Below are positions 4,681 through 53,680 of a stretch of DNA of 60,059 bases, piece by piece. Position numbers and translations under genes: made by a program. The stretch comes from Candidatus Omnitrophota bacterium (GTDB lineage: Bacteria > Omnitrophota > Gorgyraeia > Gygaellales > Profunditerraquicolaceae). The notes under the pieces were generated by a model that saw only the letters and a program-made list of their open reading frames with translations, ran no database searches and was not told the origin of the DNA. Within the stretch, counting starts at the first letter, position 1. Each line of letters starts with the position of its first letter. Location: NCBI GenBank assembly GCA_050012075.1, contig JBEKHW010000005.1:1-60059 (forward strand), in the 5' to 3' direction.

Positions 4681-4792
4681 ATTATTTTAATATTTTAACT
4701 CTATTCAAATAAAAATGCAAGAACTAAAAGGGCCTATTTATATTGTATAATTTGTTTATTATGTTAAAATTGACTTACGAAGACGGATAAAC

Positions 4793-5314
4793 ATGAAAAA
4801 AAGCATATTAATAATTGCCATACTCTTATTCCTGGCTGCTGGCGCCGCATACGCTGATGATGCGAGCCATGCGTTTGCCGAGGCGCTTACGGCAGCTCAT
4901 AACGACGAAAACAATTTTGCATTCATGCAGTTCCGCACTTTCCTGCAGGAATACCCGGAATCTAAATACGCCCAGCAGGCAATGTTCGCGATAGGAGAAT
5001 ATTACTTTATGTCGGCAAATTATTCGCAGGCAAAAGAAACGTTTTACAAATTCATAGAGAAATATCCGGATGCCGCAAGCAGGATATTTGCCATGGCCTA
5101 CCTCTTAAACATGGCTAGTCGCCTCTCTGATAATAAAGCGAGTCTTGATATACAAAAGAAAATAATAAATTTTACCCGCCTGACTCTCCTTTTCAGGAAA
5201 TCTAAGGAATATAAATATGCCTCTGCCTTTAACAAAAAACTTGTTGCAGTTTATTCAATAGACAGCATAAAGTTTTATGCGCAAGACAAATTATTCGCGG
5301 AAATTTCCTACTAA
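4793..5314 (+). CDS. secreted TPR-like protein (YbgF/BamD-like fold)
   Basis: Signal peptide plus TPR-like helices (YPESKYAQQAMFAIGEYYF, AKETFYKFIEKYPD). Confidence 0.6.
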   Translation: MKKSILIIAILLFLAAGAAYADDASHAFAEALTAAHNDENNFAFMQFRTFLQEYPESKYAQQAMFAIGEYYFMSANYSQAKETFYKFIEKYPDAASRIFAMAYLLNMASRLSDNKASLDIQKKIINFTRLTLLFRKSKEYKYASAFNKKLVAVYSIDSIKFYAQDKLFAEISY

Positions 5315-13044: not shown

Positions 13045-14751
13045 ATGAAGAAAAACAAGACAGGCAATGAAACTGGCTCTGTAAGAAACGAGATGCCTGA
13101 GAGCGCCGGACAACTACACGCGCTAATCGAAGCCATGCCCGCAGGCATTACTTTAAGCGATATAGCGGGACATTTTGAATTCTTTAATTCCAGAATGCGC
13201 GAGATTTCCGGCTACAGCATTGATGAAGCAAATCGCTCGAGCGATTTTACCGCTCTCATATATCCTGACCCTGATAAACATACGGAGGCGCTCCAGAGAT
13301 TAGATGCGGTTAAAGAAAAAGGCAAGGCCGAGGAAATCGAAACTGCTATCAGGGCAAAAGACGGCTCCCAGAAGACGCTTCTTGTTTCAAGCATCATCAT
13401 TAAATACAAAAATCAGGATATGTTCCTGACCGTATACCGCGATATTACCCAGCGCAAAGCCCAGGAGGAAGAACTAAAGAAAGCCAAAGAGAAATTGGAA
13501 ACCCAGGCCTGGGGGCTGCAAAAGGCAAATGAGGGGATCAAACTATTATACAAAGAACGGGACGATTTATTAAACACCTTAAAAGACCTCAGTTTAAAAG
13601 ATGCCAATACGGAACTTTATAATTACAGATACCTCATGGAAAGAATGAAATCTGAACTTGAAAGGGCTAAGCGATATGTCTTCCCCCTCTCCCTTATCAT
13701 GCTGGATATAGATTATTTCAAGTCCATTAACGAGGTATATGGACATCAATACGGAGATGTAATATTAAAAGAGCTCGCCAGGTATCTAAAAAGTTTTGTC
13801 AGGGAGATTGATATAGTTGCCAGGTACGGCGGTGAAGAGTTTGTCATCCTCCTACCTGATACTAATAAAGAAGGCGCCGTCATATTGGCAAGGCGGCTGC
13901 TGGAGGAATTGACGGGGCATCTGTTTGACCCTGGAGGCAGGAATATAAAACTTAAAATAAGCATGGGAGTATCAAGCTTCCCGGAAGACGGCAGGGATAC
14001 CGGCACAGAATCAGGGCTTCTGGAGCTGGCTGATAAGGCGTTGCTCAACGCGAAAGAAACGGGTGGAAACAGGCTGTCTCTTTCCGAAAGTATAGCCGCG
14101 GGTATACAAAAGATTAAGGAAAAAGGAACGGAAAAGAACATAGCTGAAGTAAGGGAAAAACTTTCTAAAATGGCAAACCGCGTAGACCATGCGCTGCTGG
14201 AATCCATTTATGCCTTTGCCAAGACGATAGAAGCCAAAGACCTGTATACTTACGAGCATGCTGAAAATACGGTTTCCATAGTTGCCGCTATCGGAGGAAA
14301 GCTTAATCTTCCCGGCAAGCTGATAGAGAACCTGAAACACGCCGCAGTTATACACGACCTGGGGAAAATCGGCATCCCCGATGATATTTTACAAAAAAAA
14401 GGAAAGATTACCGAGCAAGAATACGATATAATAAAAAAACATCCTCAGATTGGAGCCGAAATTATAAGGCCCATTCATTTTCTCGGTGATTTAATCCCTA
14501 TAATCCTTTATCATCATGAAAGGTTTGATGGGCTGGGCTATTCCACGGGTTTAAAAGGCAAGGAAATACCCATCGGTGCGCGGGTTATAGCTATAGCTGA
14601 CGTATACCAGGCGCTGGTTGCGGATAGGCCCTACCGGAATGCCTACAGTAAAGAAGAAGCGCTGACGATAGTAAAAGCCGGCTCCGGCACGCAATTTGAC
14701 CCGGAAATAGTAGAGGCATTTATAGAGACAATGAACGGCAGCGACAAATAA
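13045..14751 (+). CDS. PAS-GGDEF-HD-GYP c-di-GMP turnover protein
   Basis: PAS segment, intact RYGGEEF active site, then HD-GYP motifs (HDLGKIGIPD, HHERFDGLGY). Confidence 0.9.
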   Translation: MKKNKTGNETGSVRNEMPESAGQLHALIEAMPAGITLSDIAGHFEFFNSRMREISGYSIDEANRSSDFTALIYPDPDKHTEALQRLDAVKEKGKAEEIETAIRAKDGSQKTLLVSSIIIKYKNQDMFLTVYRDITQRKAQEEELKKAKEKLETQAWGLQKANEGIKLLYKERDDLLNTLKDLSLKDANTELYNYRYLMERMKSELERAKRYVFPLSLIMLDIDYFKSINEVYGHQYGDVILKELARYLKSFVREIDIVARYGGEEFVILLPDTNKEGAVILARRLLEELTGHLFDPGGRNIKLKISMGVSSFPEDGRDTGTESGLLELADKALLNAKETGGNRLSLSESIAAGIQKIKEKGTEKNIAEVREKLSKMANRVDHALLESIYAFAKTIEAKDLYTYEHAENTVSIVAAIGGKLNLPGKLIENLKHAAVIHDLGKIGIPDDILQKKGKITEQEYDIIKKHPQIGAEIIRPIHFLGDLIPIILYHHERFDGLGYSTGLKGKEIPIGARVIAIADVYQALVADRPYRNAYSKEEALTIVKAGSGTQFDPEIVEAFIETMNGSDK

Positions 14752-14754
14752 ATC

Positions 14755-15126
14755 ATGCGGAAAAATAAAAGAATACTGGTCATAGAGGATGATAAAGATA
14801 TAAGAAGGACCCTTGAATTACGCTTAGAGATGGAAGGATATGAAGTCATCACTGCATCGGAGGGTAAAGACGGGCTTGATAAAGCACGAATGTCGCAAGC
14901 GGCCCTTATCATACTTGATTTGATGCTGCCCGGACTGCCGGGAGAAGAAATCTGCAGGGAATTACGAAAAGAAGAAAAATATGAAAGATTGCCGATTATT
15001 ATGCTTACCGCAAAAGATACGGATGTTGATATGGTAATAGGCAGGGTAATCGGGGCTAACTATTACATCGGCAAGCCCTTTGATATGGAAGGCCTTCTGG
15101 AAAAAATCCGCTCACTGCTTAAATAA
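14755..15126 (+). CDS. single-domain response regulator (REC)
   Basis: RILVIEDDKD...LIILDLMLPG...LTAK...GKPF. Confidence 0.9.
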   Translation: MRKNKRILVIEDDKDIRRTLELRLEMEGYEVITASEGKDGLDKARMSQAALIILDLMLPGLPGEEICRELRKEEKYERLPIIMLTAKDTDVDMVIGRVIGANYYIGKPFDMEGLLEKIRSLLK

Positions 15127-15147
15127 ATAGGAACTTGTAAGATTCTA

Positions 15148-15552
15148 TTATACTGGAGGAATGGGCCTGTCTTCACCGACAGGAGGGTTTTGGTTATAGG
15201 AAGCTACCATCTTCTTAATTTCTTCCTTGTCTTCCGGAGAAATATCGGTGAACTTGACACCGATATCGAATCGCTGCTTGCCTCTCTCACTAGGGACATC
15301 AAAACCTTTGGACCAGACAACCTCGCCCGTGGCCTTAACTATTTTTCCAGACGGCAGTTCAATATTTAAAGTCAACAACTCCCCTTCTTCAAGCTGCCTG
15401 CACCCTATCATGCACAAGCCGCCTTCTGATATGTTCTTTGTAACATTGACATAGTCCTTATATACGGCATAATCCTCGGGAATGACCTTTACCCAAGATA
15501 CCCCGATGCCTATGTCAACCCTGGGAAATTGTCTTCTTTCGTTAATACCCAT
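15148..15552 (-). CDS. PilZ domain protein
   Basis: RRQFPR (RxxxR) and NISEGG (D/NxSxxG) motifs at the spacing expected for PilZ. Confidence 0.8.
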   Translation of the reverse strand: MGINERRQFPRVDIGIGVSWVKVIPEDYAVYKDYVNVTKNISEGGLCMIGCRQLEEGELLTLNIELPSGKIVKATGEVVWSKGFDVPSERGKQRFDIGVKFTDISPEDKEEIKKMVASYNQNPPVGEDRPIPPV

Positions 15553-15679
15553 AATCCTCTAAGTATTTATATAGTAGACTAACCGAATGCTATCATAAAA
15601 TAAGAAGAAAATCAACTCAAAAATTAACCTGCTTTCCTCTTGACTGCGAACTTATTTAAGGTAAAATATTCCCTACAAT

Positions 15680-15986
15680 TCCCCCTTAGCTCAGTCGGTA
15701 GAGCGAGTGGCTGTGCGAGCCCGCCAAAGGCGGGCGAGCAAAAATGCTCAAAGCGCAGCTTCTGCGGGAAACCGTAGTTGAAACTGCAGGAGAATTGCTG
15801 GAAGCCCTGGATTCAGGGTAATCAGCAGCCGAGCCCGCCAAAGATTTAATGACGGGAAGGTTCAGAGACTATGCACCTGCTGCCTAAAAGTGAAAACTCA
15901 CGGCAAAGATATAGTCCGCGTCCGGAAGTAATTCCGGGTCACGTGTAACCACCAGGTCCGAGGTTCGAGTCCTCGAGGGGGAGCCA
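15680..15986 (+). tRNA. tRNA-Asn(GUU) interrupted by a 231-nt group I intron; mature length 76 nt including the encoded CCA
   Basis: Acceptor TCCCCCT/AGGGGGA, G73, CCA. D arm GCTC-AGTCGGTA-GAGC. T arm CGAGG-TTCGAGT-CCTCG. Anticodon stem AGTGG/CCACC. Joining exon 1 (15680-15714) to exon 2 (15946-15986) gives the loop CT-GTT-AA. The alternative junction (CT/TGTAA, Thr) is less consistent with P1 pairing and with the U1/G73 identity elements. Confidence 0.8.
15715..15945 (+). ncRNA. group I (self-splicing type) intron with no ORF
   Basis: GGTTCAGAGACTA (15859-15871) and AAGATATAGTCC (15906-15917) match the conserved P7/P3' and P7' elements of group I introns. P2 is CTGCGG-GAAA-CCGTAG; P3 GCAGG/CCTGC; P5 CCCTG-GATT-CAGGG; P6 CCCG/CGGG; P9 CCGGAA-GTAA-TTCCGG. 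The exon end GGCTGT pairs with GCAGCT (15755-15760), giving a U.G at the 5' splice site. The last intron nucleotide is G. Confidence 0.8.
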
Positions 15987-16023
15987 GTATCCGTAACTTA
16001 TTGTAGATAAATAAGTTACATAA

Positions 16024-16060
16024 AGAGAGTCTGTCGATATATGATGGACTCTCTTTTTAT
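16024..16060 (+). terminator. rho-independent terminator downstream of tRNA-Asn
   Basis: AGAGAGTC...GACTCTCT stem followed by TTTTTATTT. Confidence 0.6.
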
Positions 16061-16112
16061 TTGACATATTCGGATTGTTTGATAAAATAGTTATGAACCG
16101 TTGTTCATAACT
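16061..16112 (+). promoter_or_regulatory. sigma70-type promoter plus 10-bp perfect inverted-repeat operator ahead of the DUF134 operon
   Basis: TTGACA (16061-66), 16-nt spacer, TAAAAT (16083-88), immediately followed by AGTTATGAAC-cgtt-GTTCATAACT (16089-16112). Confidence 0.6.
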
Positions 16113-16125
16113 ATGGAGCCTATTT

Positions 16126-16428
16126 ATGAGACCTAAAAAGACGAGATGGGTAAAATGTGTTCCGGGTGAGAGGTGTTTTAAGCCGCTGTGTAAGCCGATG
16201 AGTAAATGCGAAGGTGTTTATTTGTCTCTTGATGAATTTGAGGCTGTTCGTCTTGCTTGTCTTGAAAAGTTAAAGCAAATCGATGCCGCAAAACTTATGA
16301 AGATATCACATCCGACTTTCTCGCGGATTTTAACCTCGGCTCAACGAAAGATAGCTGATGGTTTGGTGAATATTAAAGCTATTAGAATTGAAGGTGGCTG
16401 TTGTGAAATTATTAAGAAAAGAAAATGA
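16126..16428 (+). CDS. DUF134 family putative DNA-binding protein
   Basis: RPKKTRWV...FKP...LSLDEFEAVRL...HPTFSRILTSAQRKIADGLVNIKAIRIEGG is the DUF134 pattern as I recall it. Confidence 0.75.
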   Translation: MRPKKTRWVKCVPGERCFKPLCKPMSKCEGVYLSLDEFEAVRLACLEKLKQIDAAKLMKISHPTFSRILTSAQRKIADGLVNIKAIRIEGGCCEIIKKRK

Positions 16429-16438
16429 AGGATGAGTC

Positions 16439-17389
16439 ATGATTAAACCGATTATTGATTGGTTGGTATATGATATTTTTAAGATGAGGCAAGGGGCCCT
16501 TTTTTCCGAAGCCCTGAATTTCTTTCTTTACGACACGGTTAAAATCTTCTTCTTATTGACCGTTATTATCTTTGTCGTTGCCATCATAAGGACGTTTTTC
16601 TCACCTGAGAAAACCCGAGCGATTTTAAGCCATAAGCAAGGTTATTGGGGCAATGTACTTGCAGCGCTTTTAGGAATCTTGACGCCTTTTTGCTCATGTA
16701 GTGCGGTTCCCTTATTCTTGGGTTTTTTAGACGCAGGGGTTCCATTGGGAGTGACGTTTTCATTTTTAGTTGCATCACCCATGATTAATGAAGTGGCGCT
16801 GGTTATGTTGTGGGGGCTTTTTGGTTGGAAGATATCTTTTATTTATATTGGGAGCGGACTTGCTATAGCTATTTTTTCGGGGATAGTGATTGGCAGACTT
16901 AAAGTTGAAGAGTTGGTTGAACATTTCGGTCATAAAGAGCAGTCGTGCTGTGCTAAATCATCCAGCATGACATTTGACGATAGGTTCGCTTATGCCAAAG
17001 AGTATACGAGGGATATCTTAAAAAGAATATGGCTGTTTGTTATTCTTGGCATCGGTTTAGGGGCGTGGATTCATGGTTACGTCCCGGCGGATTTTCTTGC
17101 AAAATATGCCGGTAAGGAAAATTGGTTTGCCGTGCCTTTGGTGACACTTATTGGTATTCCTCTTTACTCCAATGCAGCCGGAGTTATTCCTCTAATTAGC
17201 GCATTGACTGAGAAAGGCGTTGCTATGGGAACGGCACTTTCTTTTATGATGGCAGTAACCGCACTTTCTCTACCGGAGTTTATAATACTTCGAAAAGCTA
17301 TGAAGTTGAAGTTACTTATAATTTTTGCTTCGGTCGTGGGTATAGGTATTATATTTACAGGTTATCTGTTTAATCTCATTTTGAAATAA
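16439..17389 (+). CDS. permease with FCSCSAVP motif (PF03773-like, ArsP-type family)
   Basis: 316 aa, polytopic, with the characteristic TPFCSCSAVPLF motif. The family name is from memory. Confidence 0.75.
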   Translation: MIKPIIDWLVYDIFKMRQGALFSEALNFFLYDTVKIFFLLTVIIFVVAIIRTFFSPEKTRAILSHKQGYWGNVLAALLGILTPFCSCSAVPLFLGFLDAGVPLGVTFSFLVASPMINEVALVMLWGLFGWKISFIYIGSGLAIAIFSGIVIGRLKVEELVEHFGHKEQSCCAKSSSMTFDDRFAYAKEYTRDILKRIWLFVILGIGLGAWIHGYVPADFLAKYAGKENWFAVPLVTLIGIPLYSNAAGVIPLISALTEKGVAMGTALSFMMAVTALSLPEFIILRKAMKLKLLIIFASVVGIGIIFTGYLFNLILK

Positions 17390-17395
17390 GGAGAA

Positions 17396-17632
17396 ATGAT
17401 GAAGATAGAAATCATAGGAGTTGGTTGTTCGAAGTGTAAGCAGCTTACTGCCAATGCAGAGGCCGCAGTAAAAGAGCTTAATATAATCGCTGAGATATCC
17501 AAGGTGAGTGATATCGGGAAAATCGTCGAATACGGCGTGATGATGACTCCGGCATTGGCGGTAGATAGTGCTGTGGTATCGGTGGGCAAGGTATTGAGCA
17601 AGGAAGAAATAAAGAAAATCTTAATAAAATAA
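17396..17632 (+). CDS. small thioredoxin-fold protein (redox-active disulfide protein 2 / MTH895-like)
   Basis: 78 aa, MKIEIIGVGCSKC with a CxxC motif near the N-terminus. Commonly sits next to the CSCS permease. Confidence 0.75.
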   Translation: MMKIEIIGVGCSKCKQLTANAEAAVKELNIIAEISKVSDIGKIVEYGVMMTPALAVDSAVVSVGKVLSKEEIKKILIK

Positions 17633-17644
17633 CAGGAGGGAAAG

Positions 17645-18070
17645 TTGAAGAAGTTAATCGTAATACTTCTGACGGCGGTTGCAGTAATTAGCACAGGTTT
17701 TTCAGTCTTTGCCGCAGAGGATAAAACTTCGGGTAAGGTTATCGCCTATTATTTTCATGGAACAATGCGTTGTCCTACCTGCTATAAACTTGAGCAGTAT
17801 TCAAAGGAAGCGATAGAAACTAATTTTAAAGATGCACTCGCATCAGGAAAGCTTGAGTTTAAAGTAGTCAATGTAGAAGATAAAGGCAATGAGCACTATG
17901 GGAACGATTACCAGCTTTATACTAAATCGCTTATTTTGTCTTTGGTCAAAGATGGCAAGGAAATAAAATGGAAAAATATGGATAAGATTTGGGAGTATGT
18001 CGGCAATAAGCAGAGATTTATTGATTATGTAAAGAACGTGGTCGCTGATTTTTTGAAGGAAACCAAATGA
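17645..18070 (+). CDS. membrane-anchored or secreted thioredoxin-fold protein with a CPTC motif
   Basis: TTG start after GGAGGG. Signal/anchor sequence, then YYFHGTMRCPTCYKLEQ (CxxC). Confidence 0.6.
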   Translation: MKKLIVILLTAVAVISTGFSVFAAEDKTSGKVIAYYFHGTMRCPTCYKLEQYSKEAIETNFKDALASGKLEFKVVNVEDKGNEHYGNDYQLYTKSLILSLVKDGKEIKWKNMDKIWEYVGNKQRFIDYVKNVVADFLKETK

Positions 18071-18756
18071 CAGAGATATTTATAGGCTTTGCGTCTGCAT
18101 TGTGGCTGGGGATTTTGACGTCCATCAGCCCATGCCCTTTGGCAAGCAATGTGGCGGCTATTTCCTTTTTATCTAAGAAAATAACACATCCAGCGCTTGT
18201 GTTTATTTCAGGATTGGCGTATACGCTTGGCAGAATGTTTTCTTATGCGATTTTAGGATGGATTATTATTAGTTCTCTTCTAAGTGTTCCTCAAGTGGCC
18301 CAATTCCTGCAGAAATACATGGGTAAGGCTTTGGGGCCACTGCTCATTCTTACCGGGTTGGTTTTACTTGAGATAATTACTGTCCGTCTGCCGGGAATAT
18401 CGCTTTCACAAAAGCATCATAATAAACTTGCAGAGTCCGGAGCTCCGGGGGCCTTTTTGCTTGGTTTCATTTTTGCTCTGGCATTTTGCCCTATTTCTGC
18501 GGCGTTATACTTTGGGAGCCTTATTCCTTTAGCGATTAACAGTAAAAGCGGTATCGTCCTGCCATTCATTTATGGAATTGGTACAGGGTTGCCGGTTCTT
18601 GTATTTGCTGTTGCCATTGCGTTAGGCGTGACATCATTGAGCCGTTGGTTTCATAAAATCACACAGCTTGAATACTATACTCGAAAGATTACCGGAGCCG
18701 TATTTATCCTTGTTGGTTTGTACTATGCAGGAATATATATATTGAGATTATTTTAA
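18067..18756 (+). CDS. CcdA/DsbD-like transmembrane thiol:disulfide electron transporter
   Basis: Six TM helices with the paired motifs SISPCPLA and LAFCPISA, typical of the DsbD/CcdA superfamily. Confidence 0.7.
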   Translation: MTEIFIGFASALWLGILTSISPCPLASNVAAISFLSKKITHPALVFISGLAYTLGRMFSYAILGWIIISSLLSVPQVAQFLQKYMGKALGPLLILTGLVLLEIITVRLPGISLSQKHHNKLAESGAPGAFLLGFIFALAFCPISAALYFGSLIPLAINSKSGIVLPFIYGIGTGLPVLVFAVAIALGVTSLSRWFHKITQLEYYTRKITGAVFILVGLYYAGIYILRLF

Positions 18757-18765
18757 GGTGAGCAA

Positions 18766-19575
18766 TTGGACATAGACAAGAATAAGCAGTATGAGATTAT
18801 CGTTTTTCCAAATCAAGATGAAGGCCTAAAAGCTCAAAGGATTTTGGTTTCTAAGGGCGAGGATTTTAAGCACATTTCTACTTTGGCAGTAGTTGTGTCT
18901 GAAGAGCATAAACATGAAGCGTGCCGGGTAATTATCGATGAGAATGTGCTGATTAGTGGACGTTATCCATTTTTATATCGTGATTATGAAGAGGATTTTT
19001 TTAAAAGAGCCCATGGGTATAAGGCTCCGGAGTCAAACAGCGAGTTTTTAAAAAGTATCACTCTGTGTTATGTGGCTCCTTGTATGGCCGATGAGAAAAA
19101 GATACGGCTCATCGGATATTTCGACAGGGACATAACAGAGATTTTACCGTATATAAACGCCGTCATCAAAGGTGCCTCGTATAATAAGGCCGCTTCGACT
19201 TTGACCTATGCGAAAGAGCGCAGACTTATTAATCTATATAACATTAAGATTACTATAGCCAAAGCAGACGATATCATCGATGCTTGGCATATTTTAGACG
19301 AGGTTAAAGCTCTTATAAATAATACTTATAAGAATAGGGCAGGTATTAAGCCAAGTTATGAGGAGAAAGTAAAAGTAACAGCCCTTCAGATTTACGGCTG
19401 GCTTCCTAAGACTAATTGCCGTGCCTGTGGGGAAGCGACATGTCTTGCTTTTGCTTGTAGGCTTCTGTTGGGAGAACAGAAGCTTTCAAAATGCGCTCCA
19501 TTGTCAACAGAGCAAAAATTTACCGAGAATAAGAAAATTATGCAAGAGATGGCAGAAGCATTAGGTGTTGCGTGA
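18766..19575 (+). CDS. protein with a C-terminal RnfB-type 4Fe-4S (FeS) domain
   Basis: C-terminal CRACGEATCLAFACRLLLGEQKLSKC resembles the CxxCG...C...C putative Fe-S domain. The N-terminal part is unassigned. TTG start. Confidence 0.55.
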   Translation: MDIDKNKQYEIIVFPNQDEGLKAQRILVSKGEDFKHISTLAVVVSEEHKHEACRVIIDENVLISGRYPFLYRDYEEDFFKRAHGYKAPESNSEFLKSITLCYVAPCMADEKKIRLIGYFDRDITEILPYINAVIKGASYNKAASTLTYAKERRLINLYNIKITIAKADDIIDAWHILDEVKALINNTYKNRAGIKPSYEEKVKVTALQIYGWLPKTNCRACGEATCLAFACRLLLGEQKLSKCAPLSTEQKFTENKKIMQEMAEALGVA

Positions 19576-51580: not shown

Positions 51581-53047
51581 TTAGCCCTTTATTACTCCCA
51601 ATGGCCGCATGCGGCATATACGCTTTGCGATACCTGCGTTATGCACTACATTTACAACGTCGTTGACATCTTTATACGCCTGCGGCGCCTCTTCTACTAT
51701 CGTTGCCTTTCCTGAGGCCTTTACTATTATACCCTTAGATTCCAATTCTTTCAACAATGCGTTTAAGTTTGTGGACTTGGCCGAGGCAGTGCGTGACTTC
51801 ACGCGGCCTGCGCCGTGGCAGGTAGTGCCAAAGGTTTCTTCCATGGCTTTCTGGGTACCTGCCAATAAATAAGAGTTTCTTCCCATATCCCCCGGTATAA
51901 TCACCGGCTGGCCCGTCTCTTTGTATCTATCAGGAAGAGCCGGATGCCCGGGGCCAAAGGCACGGGTTGCGCCTTTACGGTGAACGCATAATTTCTTTTC
52001 TTTCCCGGAAACAAGATGTTTTTCTATCTTGGCGATATTATGTGCCACGTCATAGATAAGGAACATGCCAAGCTTCTGCCATGATACCCCGAAGACTTTC
52101 TCAAAGCTTTTACGGGTAAGGTGCATAAGGCACTGCCGGTTATTCCAGGCGTAATTAGCGGCGCAGCGCATTGCGGCCAGATACGCCTTTCCTTCGGGTG
52201 AATTAACCGGAGCGCAGGAAAGCTGCCTGTCAGGGACATTAATATTATATTTCTGCAGGCAGTGAATCATATTTCTTGTGTAATCATCACAGACCTGATA
52301 ACCGAGGCCGCGTGAACCGGAATGAATCATCACTGTAATCTGTCCCATATCTAATCCAAAGGCATCGCAAAGTTTACTGTCATAAAGCTGCTCAATGACC
52401 TGGATTTCCAGGAAATGATTCCCCGAGCCAAGGGTCCCTGATTGCGCTCTTCCCCGCTCGTACGCCCTATCCGACACGGCATCCGGGTCTGCGCCGGCAA
52501 TTGCCCCGTTTTCTTCAGTGCATTCCAGGTCATCCTGGGTGCCGTATCCTTTCCCTACTGCCCAGCCTGACCCTTTCAGTAAAATCTCTTTTTCCTCTTT
52601 GGAAGTTACCCGTATTTCGCCCTTAGAGCCCAATCCCGCGGGAACATCGTTAAAAAGGGCAAAAACCAGCTTCTCAAGTTTATCCTTTACTTCTTCAATA
52701 CGTAAATCCGTGCGCAGCATCCGCACCCCGCAATTTATGTCGAAACCCACACCTCCGGGAGAAACAACTCCACCTTCTTCAATATCGGTCGCTGCCACTC
52801 CTCCAATAGGAAAACCGTATCCCCAGTGTATATCCGGCATTGCAAGCGAGGCGTTGACTATGCCGGGCAAAAACGCGACATTGGCCACTTGCTCAAGGGC
52901 TTTATCCTGATATATATCCTTTAATAATTTCTCGTCGGCATAGATCAACCCCGGCACGCGCATACCGGCTTTATATGATTTGGGGATGCGCCAGCGGTAA
53001 TCATCGATTTTTTCTAGCTTTACCTGTGTGGCCTCATTAGACATCAA
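51581..53047 (-). CDS. rtcB: RNA 3'-phosphate/5'-OH ligase RtcB
   Basis: 488 aa. DIHWGYGFPIGG, GGVGFDINCG, SGSRGLG and HGAGR are the RtcB metal- and GMP-histidine motifs. Confidence 0.93.
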   Translation of the reverse strand: MMSNEATQVKLEKIDDYRWRIPKSYKAGMRVPGLIYADEKLLKDIYQDKALEQVANVAFLPGIVNASLAMPDIHWGYGFPIGGVAATDIEEGGVVSPGGVGFDINCGVRMLRTDLRIEEVKDKLEKLVFALFNDVPAGLGSKGEIRVTSKEEKEILLKGSGWAVGKGYGTQDDLECTEENGAIAGADPDAVSDRAYERGRAQSGTLGSGNHFLEIQVIEQLYDSKLCDAFGLDMGQITVMIHSGSRGLGYQVCDDYTRNMIHCLQKYNINVPDRQLSCAPVNSPEGKAYLAAMRCAANYAWNNRQCLMHLTRKSFEKVFGVSWQKLGMFLIYDVAHNIAKIEKHLVSGKEKKLCVHRKGATRAFGPGHPALPDRYKETGQPVIIPGDMGRNSYLLAGTQKAMEETFGTTCHGAGRVKSRTASAKSTNLNALLKELESKGIIVKASGKATIVEEAPQAYKDVNDVVNVVHNAGIAKRICRMRPLGVIKG

Positions 53048-53453: not shown

Positions 53454-53607
53454 TTATAACTGTTCCCCTATCGGAAAGGAACTTAATGCACTCCGCTTGC
53501 CGTTCTGTTTAACGCTTAATTCACCCGCTATTTCCTATCGGTGAATTACACCGCGAAGCGGTGCTGCTTGAGTGCACTTAAAATTTCTCTTGACGGAAAA
53601 TTTTAAG

Positions 53608-53680
53608 TGGGCCATGTAGGAGTCGGACCTACGACCTTGACATTAAGAGTGTCCTGCTCTACCAATTGAGCTAATGGCCC
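53608..53680 (-). tRNA. tRNA-Lys(CUU)
   Basis: Reverse complement GGGCCATTAGCTCAATTGGTAGAGCA-GGACA-CTCTTAA-TGTCA-AGGTC-GTAGG-TCCGACT-CCTAC-ATGGCCCA. The T loop reads TCCGACT (C at position 55), which is unusual. CCA is not encoded. Confidence 0.8.

Follow-up and report, generated by a model that had tools for sequence, protein, structure and literature searches.

Compact group I introns of subgroup IC3 are known from tRNA genes, where they interrupt tRNA-Leu(UAA) in cyanobacteria and plastids, tRNA-Ile(CAU) in Azoarcus, tRNA-Arg(CCU) in Agrobacterium and tRNA-fMet in cyanobacteria. They are inserted at 34/35 in tRNA-Leu and at 36/37 in tRNA-Ile and tRNA-Arg. Williams 2020 (bioRxiv, 10.1101/2020.01.27.920355) raised the number of bacterial tRNA intron types from the four classical ones to 21, and the seed alignment of that study holds an entry, 'Pam37.Asn.4Ug', with the same host and the same site as the intron described here. 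Mobile group I introns with HNH homing endonucleases are represented by the phage introns encoding I-HmuI, I-TevIII and I-PfoP3I (PMC3428280). Here we analysed a candidate split tRNA gene at positions 15680-15986 of a stretch of 60,059 nt from a Candidatus Omnitrophota bacterium (contig JBEKHW010000005.1), called the window below. We are confident that these positions constitute a single transcription unit for tRNA-Asn(GUU), the anticodon of which is predicted to be split by a group I ribozyme of 231 nt inserted between U35 and U36, an ORF-less (open reading frame-less) copy from a mobile lineage whose full-length members carry an HNH-like ORF.

Like the IC3 introns, the predicted intron is a compact (about 200-250 nt) ribozyme in the anticodon loop of a bacterial tRNA, with the anticodon stem-loop supplying the exon strand of P1; it has P1-P9 with P9.0, its P2 and P9 are capped by GNRA-type loops, and large peripheral domains are lacking. 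It differs from them in host and site (35/36), and its P7 strands are UCAGAGACUA and AGAUAUAGUCC, whereas the IC3 seeds of the Williams alignment have GUAGAGACUA and AAGGGAUAGUCC; because of this difference in P7 we did not file it as IC3. The Asn.4Ug seed shares with it the host tRNA-Asn(GUU), the insertion after the fourth nucleotide of the anticodon loop (CUGU/...g/UAA), the U at position -1 and the terminal G. This seed is 93-97% identical to four cyanobacterial loci (L052, L022, L017 and L109; loci and contigs used for comparison are numbered with the prefix L), all of which were matched over their full length, with 80-88 bits, by R1, the covariance model of the window's subfamily described below, indicating a homologous core. 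The seed has an extra P2-P3 stem-loop, an extra P7-P3' hairpin, a short P1 loop and the guide UGUA, whereas the window sublineage, with its nearest relatives in Omnitrophota, is more compact and has the guide GCAGCU and a two-hairpin P1 loop. With the HNH-mobile introns the locus shares two traits: its full-length relatives hold a C-x2-C...HH...C-x2-C-H ORF in a peripheral loop, and intron-plus and intron-minus alleles of one gene exist, as homing would give. It differs from them in that the window copy is without the ORF and in that the putative endonuclease ORF of the relatives lies in the P1 loop.

In its default mode, ARAGORN reported six tRNAs in the window, none of them at 15680-15986 and none of them tRNA-Asn. 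Once 15715-15945 had been removed, it called a 76-nt tRNA-Asn(GUU) whose acceptor stem has 7 bp and whose G73 is followed by an encoded CCA. The 5' exon reads TCCCCCT TA GCTC AGTCGGTA GAGC G AGTGG CTGT and is followed by the 231 nt of the insert; the 3' exon reads TAA CCACC AGGTC CGAGG TTCGAGT CCTCG AGGGGGA G CCA. The best Escherichia coli matches of the spliced sequence were annotated as tRNA-Asn, and U1-A72 together with G73 is consistent with bacterial tRNA-Asn. Two contigs from the viral collection IMG/VR (L157 and L159) contain uninterrupted tRNA-Asn(GUU) genes identical to the predicted ligated exons at 76/76 positions (35/35 for the 5' exon, with the 3' exon likewise identical), and the uninterrupted genes of L158 and L156 agree with them at 75/76 and 73/76 positions. 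The insert itself gave the only match to Rfam Intron_gpI (RF00028) in the window, at 15736-15938 on the forward strand (67.6 bits, E 5.2e-15, gathering score 50, model positions 1-253). This bears out an earlier note, made from the sequence alone, which had called the insert a group I intron; the individual sequence features listed in that note were all found in place.

We aligned the core of the window intron, from the guide to the terminal G, with 21 close relatives (close set) found by scanning genomes and metagenomes, and counted covariation on a hand-drawn P2-P9 structure in which P7 was treated as a pseudoknot. In this set, 98.3% of the cells formed standard pairs, in comparison to 25-50% when the partners were slid by 1-3 columns, and 28/45 pairs were altered on both sides; the observed values were reached in none of 500 shuffles. 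Covariation was seen in P2, P3, P4, P6a, P8, P9.0 and P9, so that the P3-P9 core, including the P3/P7 pseudoknot, is backed by compensatory changes; P7 and P6, both invariant, are the exceptions among the core helices. The pairing CCCG/CGGG, previously labelled P6, is present; the helix that it forms is P6a, and P6 proper consists of GC/GU. R1, built from the close-set alignment, matched all 99 fetched loci over their full length and matched the window once, at 15755-15945, with 197.6 bits, the second best score of 100. In the wide set of 100 sequences aligned with R1, 93.8% of the cells were paired and 36/39 pairs showed compensatory change, in an alignment that was fitted to the model and favours the structure.

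The part of the intron that precedes the core is an enlarged P1 loop (L1) with two hairpins; P1 with both of them folds at -35.2 kcal/mol (z = -5.1). The closest intron, L049 from Omnitrophota (82% identity over 191 nt), has a P1 loop of 8 nt. Three metagenome loci (L124, L127 and L135) have the layout of the window, GCGAG / hairpin 1 / GAGCA-AAAA-UGCUC / AAAGC, in which the sequence of hairpin 1 differs but still pairs. In L134, L144, L140 and L099, GAGCAAAA and (C)ATGCTCAAAGC bracket an ORF together with its ribosome-binding site, and in these four loci and L025 the flanks that form hairpin 2 in the window enclose the ribosome-binding site and an ORF of ~107 amino acids. The reading frame of the relatives continues across the guide sequence and P2 as far as its stop codon, the UGA of J2/3. 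Such an HNH-like ORF of 100-116 amino acids in L1, with invariant C-x2-C, HH and C-x2-C-H motifs, occurs in about 25 of the fetched introns, which come from several phyla. The window intron (15715-15945) contains no ORF of at least 60 amino acids and keeps only the flanks, among them ATGCTCAAAGC, the 3' end of the relatives' ORF; the ORF-derived ATGCT lies outside the ribozyme core. Since this 3' end is retained, the window copy can be regarded as an ORF-deleted derivative. The expanded P1 loop is thus the scaffold of a putative homing-endonuclease ORF that is still present in relatives, which explains what had earlier been described as an odd feature: the two hairpins are there, the oddness is not. 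The identical tRNA-Asn genes without an intron in L157 and L159 provide the intron-minus alleles, and the intron lineage appears, from these comparisons, to be mobile.

In five relatives (L126, L140, L144, L025 and L071), the first ~25 nt of the intron form a recurring module of GCAC, GAG, a hairpin, GAG and UGC, a stem in which the two GAG make up a symmetric internal loop. The module occurs in ORF-bearing and in some ORF-less relatives, just upstream of the ribosome-binding site of the ORF, and could be a protein-binding or translation-control element.

The predicted junctions are 15714/15715 and 15945/15946, as placed by four independent lines: the P1 wobble, P9.0, relatives with unambiguous ends and the intron-less alleles. 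In the 8-bp P1, U15714 stands opposite G15755, giving a U.G wobble at the 5' splice site, and the 5' exon could be located in 84 family members, 83 of which have the guide GCAG facing CUGU (C32-U35). An initial guide-sequence scan was confounded by a conserved GCAGCC in P4'/P6 (control rate 53%) and was redone on the model alignment. At the 3' end, the relatives have GAA/UUC, AAG/CUU or ACC/GGU in place of the GCG/CGU of P9.0, all three pairs being altered on both sides, and 97 of 100 family matches end in a terminal G followed by TAA. Removal of 15713-15943, which would place the intron two bases upstream, between U33 and U34 of a tRNA-Thr(UGU), also left an equally good 76-nt cloverleaf; ARAGORN preferred this tRNA-Thr in its intron mode, a possible terminal G is available in G15943, and the alternative 5' site is preceded by a U, U15712. 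In P1, however, U15712 pairs with A15757, without a U.G wobble, and G15943 falls within the covarying P9.0 helix, for which reason we take G15945 as the terminal G. Moreover, a two-base shift would leave no terminal G in the many relatives whose introns have CTTG, TTCG or CATG as their last bases, the otherwise identical uninterrupted genes spell CTGTTAA and hence Asn, and both the acceptor end (U1-A72, G73) and the E. coli matches are those of tRNA-Asn. We rejected the tRNA-Thr(UGU) host on the P1 wobble, P9.0, the ends of the relatives and the 76/76 intron-less Asn genes, and give it practically no chance of being correct. An intron between U35 and U36 of tRNA-Asn(GUU), with the guide GCAGCU and the terminal G15945, as the earlier note had proposed, is upheld by the covarying helices, P9.0 and the identical intron-less genes; Asn was also rightly preferred there to Thr, the uninterrupted genes and P9.0 excluding the latter. 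Removing 15715-15945 yields the Asn cloverleaf as claimed; the statement that a 76-nt tRNA is obtained only in this way was a slight overstatement, as the shifted excision gives the equal Thr cloverleaf, and the suggested intron search with ARAGORN found a split tRNA but called its isotype Thr(UGU), not Asn.

The intron also contains a direct repeat, CGAGCCCGCCAAAG, at 15716 and 15830; it had been noticed before and is 14 nt long, not 13. A repeat of at least 13 nt occurred in none of 5000 mononucleotide shuffles. Copy 1 is the 5' half of L1 hairpin 1, and copy 2 (15830-15843) is the 5' half of P6a. Duplications of this kind were seen elsewhere: in L040 an 18-nt P2 hairpin is exactly repeated at P6a (intron positions 138-155 and 218-235), and in L091 a 15-nt P5 hairpin is exactly repeated at P8 (157-171 and 247-261), which suggests that hairpins are recurrently copied within an intron. 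The repeat and the L1 hairpins might instead be an assembly artefact, for example a chimeric join of strain variants, with a simpler true P1 loop; the Logan contigs of SRR7028477 break at 15704 and resume at 15946, which shows that the assembly graph is heterogeneous across the intron. This is very improbable, since an ENA contig (ERZ27250059) is identical to the window over 13126-19428, the L1 layout with a covarying hairpin 1 recurs in L124, L127 and L135, which are independent metagenome contigs, and the duplications in L040 and L091 are of the same type. A somewhat less improbable, though still unlikely, explanation is that the intron has decayed and no longer splices, the locus being a tRNA-Asn pseudogene while an intact second gene elsewhere supplies tRNA-Asn. 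The loss of the homing endonuclease ORF would fit such decay, the shortened P6a shares the 14-nt duplication with L1 and may reflect rearrangement, and the view of the genome spans 60 kb; within this window, no other tRNA-Asn gene is present. The core, in contrast, is intact, with helices P3-P8 and an invariant P7 with its bulged A, the joining strands J4/5 and J8/7 match those of relatives (in an alignment read by eye), and the R1 score ranks near the top of the family. The exons are 100% identical to uninterrupted genes that look functional, promoter-like and terminator-like sites are present, and the P6a loop of L123 is similarly enlarged.

The reading of the locus as an ORF-less, self-splicing intron in tRNA-Asn has nevertheless to be set against several observations that weigh against it. 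P6a has 4 bp and a 15-nt loop, in comparison to 5-7 bp in relatives, and a loss of activity through this reduction has to be allowed for. P1 is conserved and shows no covariation, the guide being GCAGCY regardless of host positions 30-31; because CUGU is fixed in every tRNA-Asn, covariation of P1 is impossible. A by-eye search for a P10 pairing of the 3' exon with nucleotides 5' of the guide revealed none that was evident. The ORF of the relatives scored 19.5 bits with Pfam HNH over profile positions 1-46 of 47, below the gathering score of 21.4, and among the ORFs of three relatives compared with Pfam one had no match; a PDB profile search gave weak but consistent HNH matches, to a group II intron maturase (HNH domain of 6me0_C, E 0.005) and to McrA. 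Finally, the ORF was probably lost rather than never gained, but a pre-insertion state is possible.

From the intact, strongly covarying core we infer that the intron is probably self-splicing. In the folded precursor, the exon nucleotides G30-U35 and the guide GCAGCU would form P1, in which U15714.G15755 marks the splice site. P7 would bind a free guanosine that attacks 3' of U15714, after which the terminal G15945, set by the 3-bp P9.0, would occupy the same P7 site. The 3'-OH of U35 would then attack 3' of G15945, joining the exons into a 76-nt tRNA with the anticodon loop CUGUUAA.

In an independent assembly from another sample, the Logan contigs of SRR7028477 (L146 and L002), one contig ends within the 5' exon and another begins exactly at the first base of the 3' exon. 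The start of a unitig at 15946 suggests a predecessor other than G in this data set, for instance an intron-less allele or spliced RNA; a drop in coverage looks alike, and the observation was not used as evidence.

To survey the distribution of the arrangement, we scanned one genome per species for a pattern that combines both P7 strands with a terminal G, TAA and a T arm. The scan returned at least 120 loci. At least 94 of them can be assigned cleanly to tRNA-Asn(GUU) with CUGU|intron...G|UAA; the remaining loci are for the most part ARAGORN boundary errors on the same arrangement. Counted by eye from record titles, the loci listed include about 60 from Patescibacteria (candidate phyla radiation, CPR), 13 from Omnitrophota (two of them single-cell genomes), 5 from Cyanobacteria, 5 from Planctomycetes-labelled bins, 6 from Chloroflexota (Limnocylindria, Chloroflexia and one 'Chloroflexi' bin), about 8 from 'Gammaproteobacteria' bins and 5 from DPANN-labelled bins, the remainder belonging to other groups. 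The literature on tRNA-Asn and group I introns yielded organelle and phage papers and nothing on the Asn.4Ug class; a paper on cyanobacterial tRNAs (PMC5733544) reports 'group I introns' of 22-49 nt, which are not relevant, and the tRNAscan-SE 2.0 paper mentions only the fMet and Ile2 intron cases. Host and site are already catalogued as Asn.4Ug, and the predicted window intron is a further ORF-less copy of a class that is widespread and often met in uncultivated microbes. The view that an Asn host with a 35/36 site is unusual does not hold, given the Williams 2020 entry and the same arrangement in at least 94 species-representative genomes, and the list of four classical bacterial tRNA intron types from which it started is out of date.

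Nine contigs of the IMG/VR collection (L147-L155) carry an intron-containing tRNA that fits the tRNA-Asn pattern; ARAGORN in intron mode gives Asn (gtt) directly for only some of them. On L147, a contig of 436 kb, the intron-containing gene is part of an array, in which it comes after two tRNA-Lys genes and one tRNA-Gln gene. Large phages could be the vehicle for spread between phyla, the contigs being phage-like. On L016, R1 matched over its full length a second time (4699-4897, forward strand), at a distance of 1.5 kb from the tRNA-Asn intron on that contig. This second match falls in another split tRNA, called Leu(caa) with a 207-nt intron by ARAGORN.

Table 1. Coordinates of the predicted split tRNA-Asn gene, its intron and flanking signals in the window (MFE, minimum free energy)
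Feature	Position	Strand	Basis and remarks
Sigma-70-like promoter match (TTGACT, 16-nt spacer, TAAAAT)	15640..15667	+	12 nt upstream of tRNA 5' end; consensus match only, 10/12 positions
5' exon of tRNA-Asn(GUU)	15680..15714	+	Acceptor 5' strand, D arm, anticodon stem 5' strand, loop C32 U33 G34 U35; ARAGORN on spliced sequence
P1 5' strand GGCUGU/GC (slash, 5' splice site after U15714)	15709..15716	+	Sequence and MFE fold
Group I intron, 231 nt, ORF-less	15715..15945	+	Rfam RF00028 and family model R1
L1 hairpin 1 GCCCGCC-AAA-GGCGGGC	15719..15735	+	Fold; hairpin of other sequence kept in L124, L127, L135, L134
L1 hairpin 2 GAGCA-AAAA-UGCUC	15736..15749	+	Alignment with L134, L144, L140, L099; halves are flanks of their HNH ORF
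P1 3' strand GC/GCAGCU (guide GCAGCU, 15755-15760)	15753..15760	+	Fold and family alignment
P2 CUGCGG-GAAA-CCGUAG	15762..15777	+	6/6 pairs altered on both sides in close set
P3 5' strand GCAGG (partner CCUGC, 15876-15880)	15786..15790	+	4/5 pairs covary, 100% of cells paired
P4 (15796-15801 with 15822-27) enclosing P5 (15805-15809 with 15814-15818, loop GAUU)	15796..15827	+	3/6 P4 pairs covary; P4-P5 fit Rfam consensus structure
P6 (GC/GU, 15828-15829 with 15860-15861) and reduced P6a (CCCG, 15-nt loop, CGGG)	15828..15861	+	4/4 P6a pairs covary, 87.5% of cells paired
P7 5' strand G-A(bulge)-GACUA (partner UAGUCC, 15912-15917), guanosine-binding helix	15865..15871	+	Invariant, always paired in close set; conserved-core motif of Rfam model
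P8 GCC..GUGA-AAAC-UCAC GGC	15882..15904	+	2/3 basal pairs covary
P9.0 (GCG 15918-15920 with CGU 15942-15944) enclosing P9 (15921-15938, loop GUAA)	15918..15944	+	3/3 P9.0 and 5/7 P9 pairs covary
Terminal (omega) G, last intron nucleotide	15945	+	Invariant final column of close-relative alignment
3' exon	15946..15986	+	U36 A37 A38, anticodon stem 3' strand, variable loop, T arm, acceptor 3' strand, G73, CCA; ARAGORN on spliced sequence
Intrinsic-terminator-like hairpin (16022-16056), then T run	16022..16064	+	Consensus match only

The surroundings of the gene are those of an ordinary bacterial chromosome segment, as judged from a comparison of nine large window proteins with NCBIfam (PNPase, DnaX, ABC-F and RtcB among them), which pointed to no particular phylum, and a tblastn search with the proteins flanking the gene in the window against all fetched loci revealed no common neighbourhood that would bear on taxonomy or on the history of the intron. 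The nearest introns and tRNAs are what suggests Omnitrophota as the probable phylum in this analysis. The RtcB-family RNA ligase gene (51581-53047, reverse strand) lies ~0.5 kb from tRNA-Lys(CUU) at 53607-53680; because group I introns require no ligase, it is probably unrelated to the intron. An imperfect 17-nt direct repeat (82% identity; 15649-15665 and 15995-16011) is found on both sides of the tRNA gene, and a perfect 10-bp hairpin (GTAACTTATT...AATAAGTTAC) is located at 15993-16019, just 3' of the CCA end. The repeat and the hairpin may be due to chance, or represent a processing signal or an old integration scar.

The tRNA-Asn intron with an HNH ORF was also found on contigs of DPANN-labelled bins (L035, that is, CAYIBB010000024.1, 1-7560, as well as L057, that is, JBFYLU010000046.1, and L006, L010 and L085). 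The 8.9-kb contig of L035 also encodes TBP, an MCM protein with an archaeal winged helix, aIF-2beta, aIF-1A and a PNO1-type KH protein; in L057 a KH protein adjoins the tRNA, and the neighbours in L006 and L010 (FtsZ, an MnmA-like protein and a nitroreductase) are uninformative. The tRNA-Asn genes of the DPANN bins have G1-C72, an archaeal-type acceptor, instead of U1-A72. A survey of archaea from 2018 (PMC6125680) found group I introns in rRNA genes only, and Williams 2020 dismissed one archaeal tRNA case as mis-binning. We give even chances to the proposal that a single HNH-mobilised lineage, to which the window intron would belong as a member without the ORF, targets tRNA-Asn U35/U36 across phyla and domains. 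If the DPANN contigs are not assembly chimeras, group I introns would occur in archaeal tRNA genes, and the loop that in archaea normally holds protein-spliced bulge-helix-bulge introns would here hold a self-splicing one.

The window copy leaves the knowledge of group I introns in general unchanged. For annotation, it means that standard tRNA finders overlook the split tRNA-Asn gene, or read it as tRNA-Thr when introns are permitted, and genomes with such a gene can thus seem devoid of tRNA-Asn; with a covarying P9.0 and an intron-less allele taken together, the junctions can be placed by a clean rule. For the intron family, the comparison with ORF-bearing relatives points to the P1 loop as the place where the putative endonuclease gene resides and from which it is lost.

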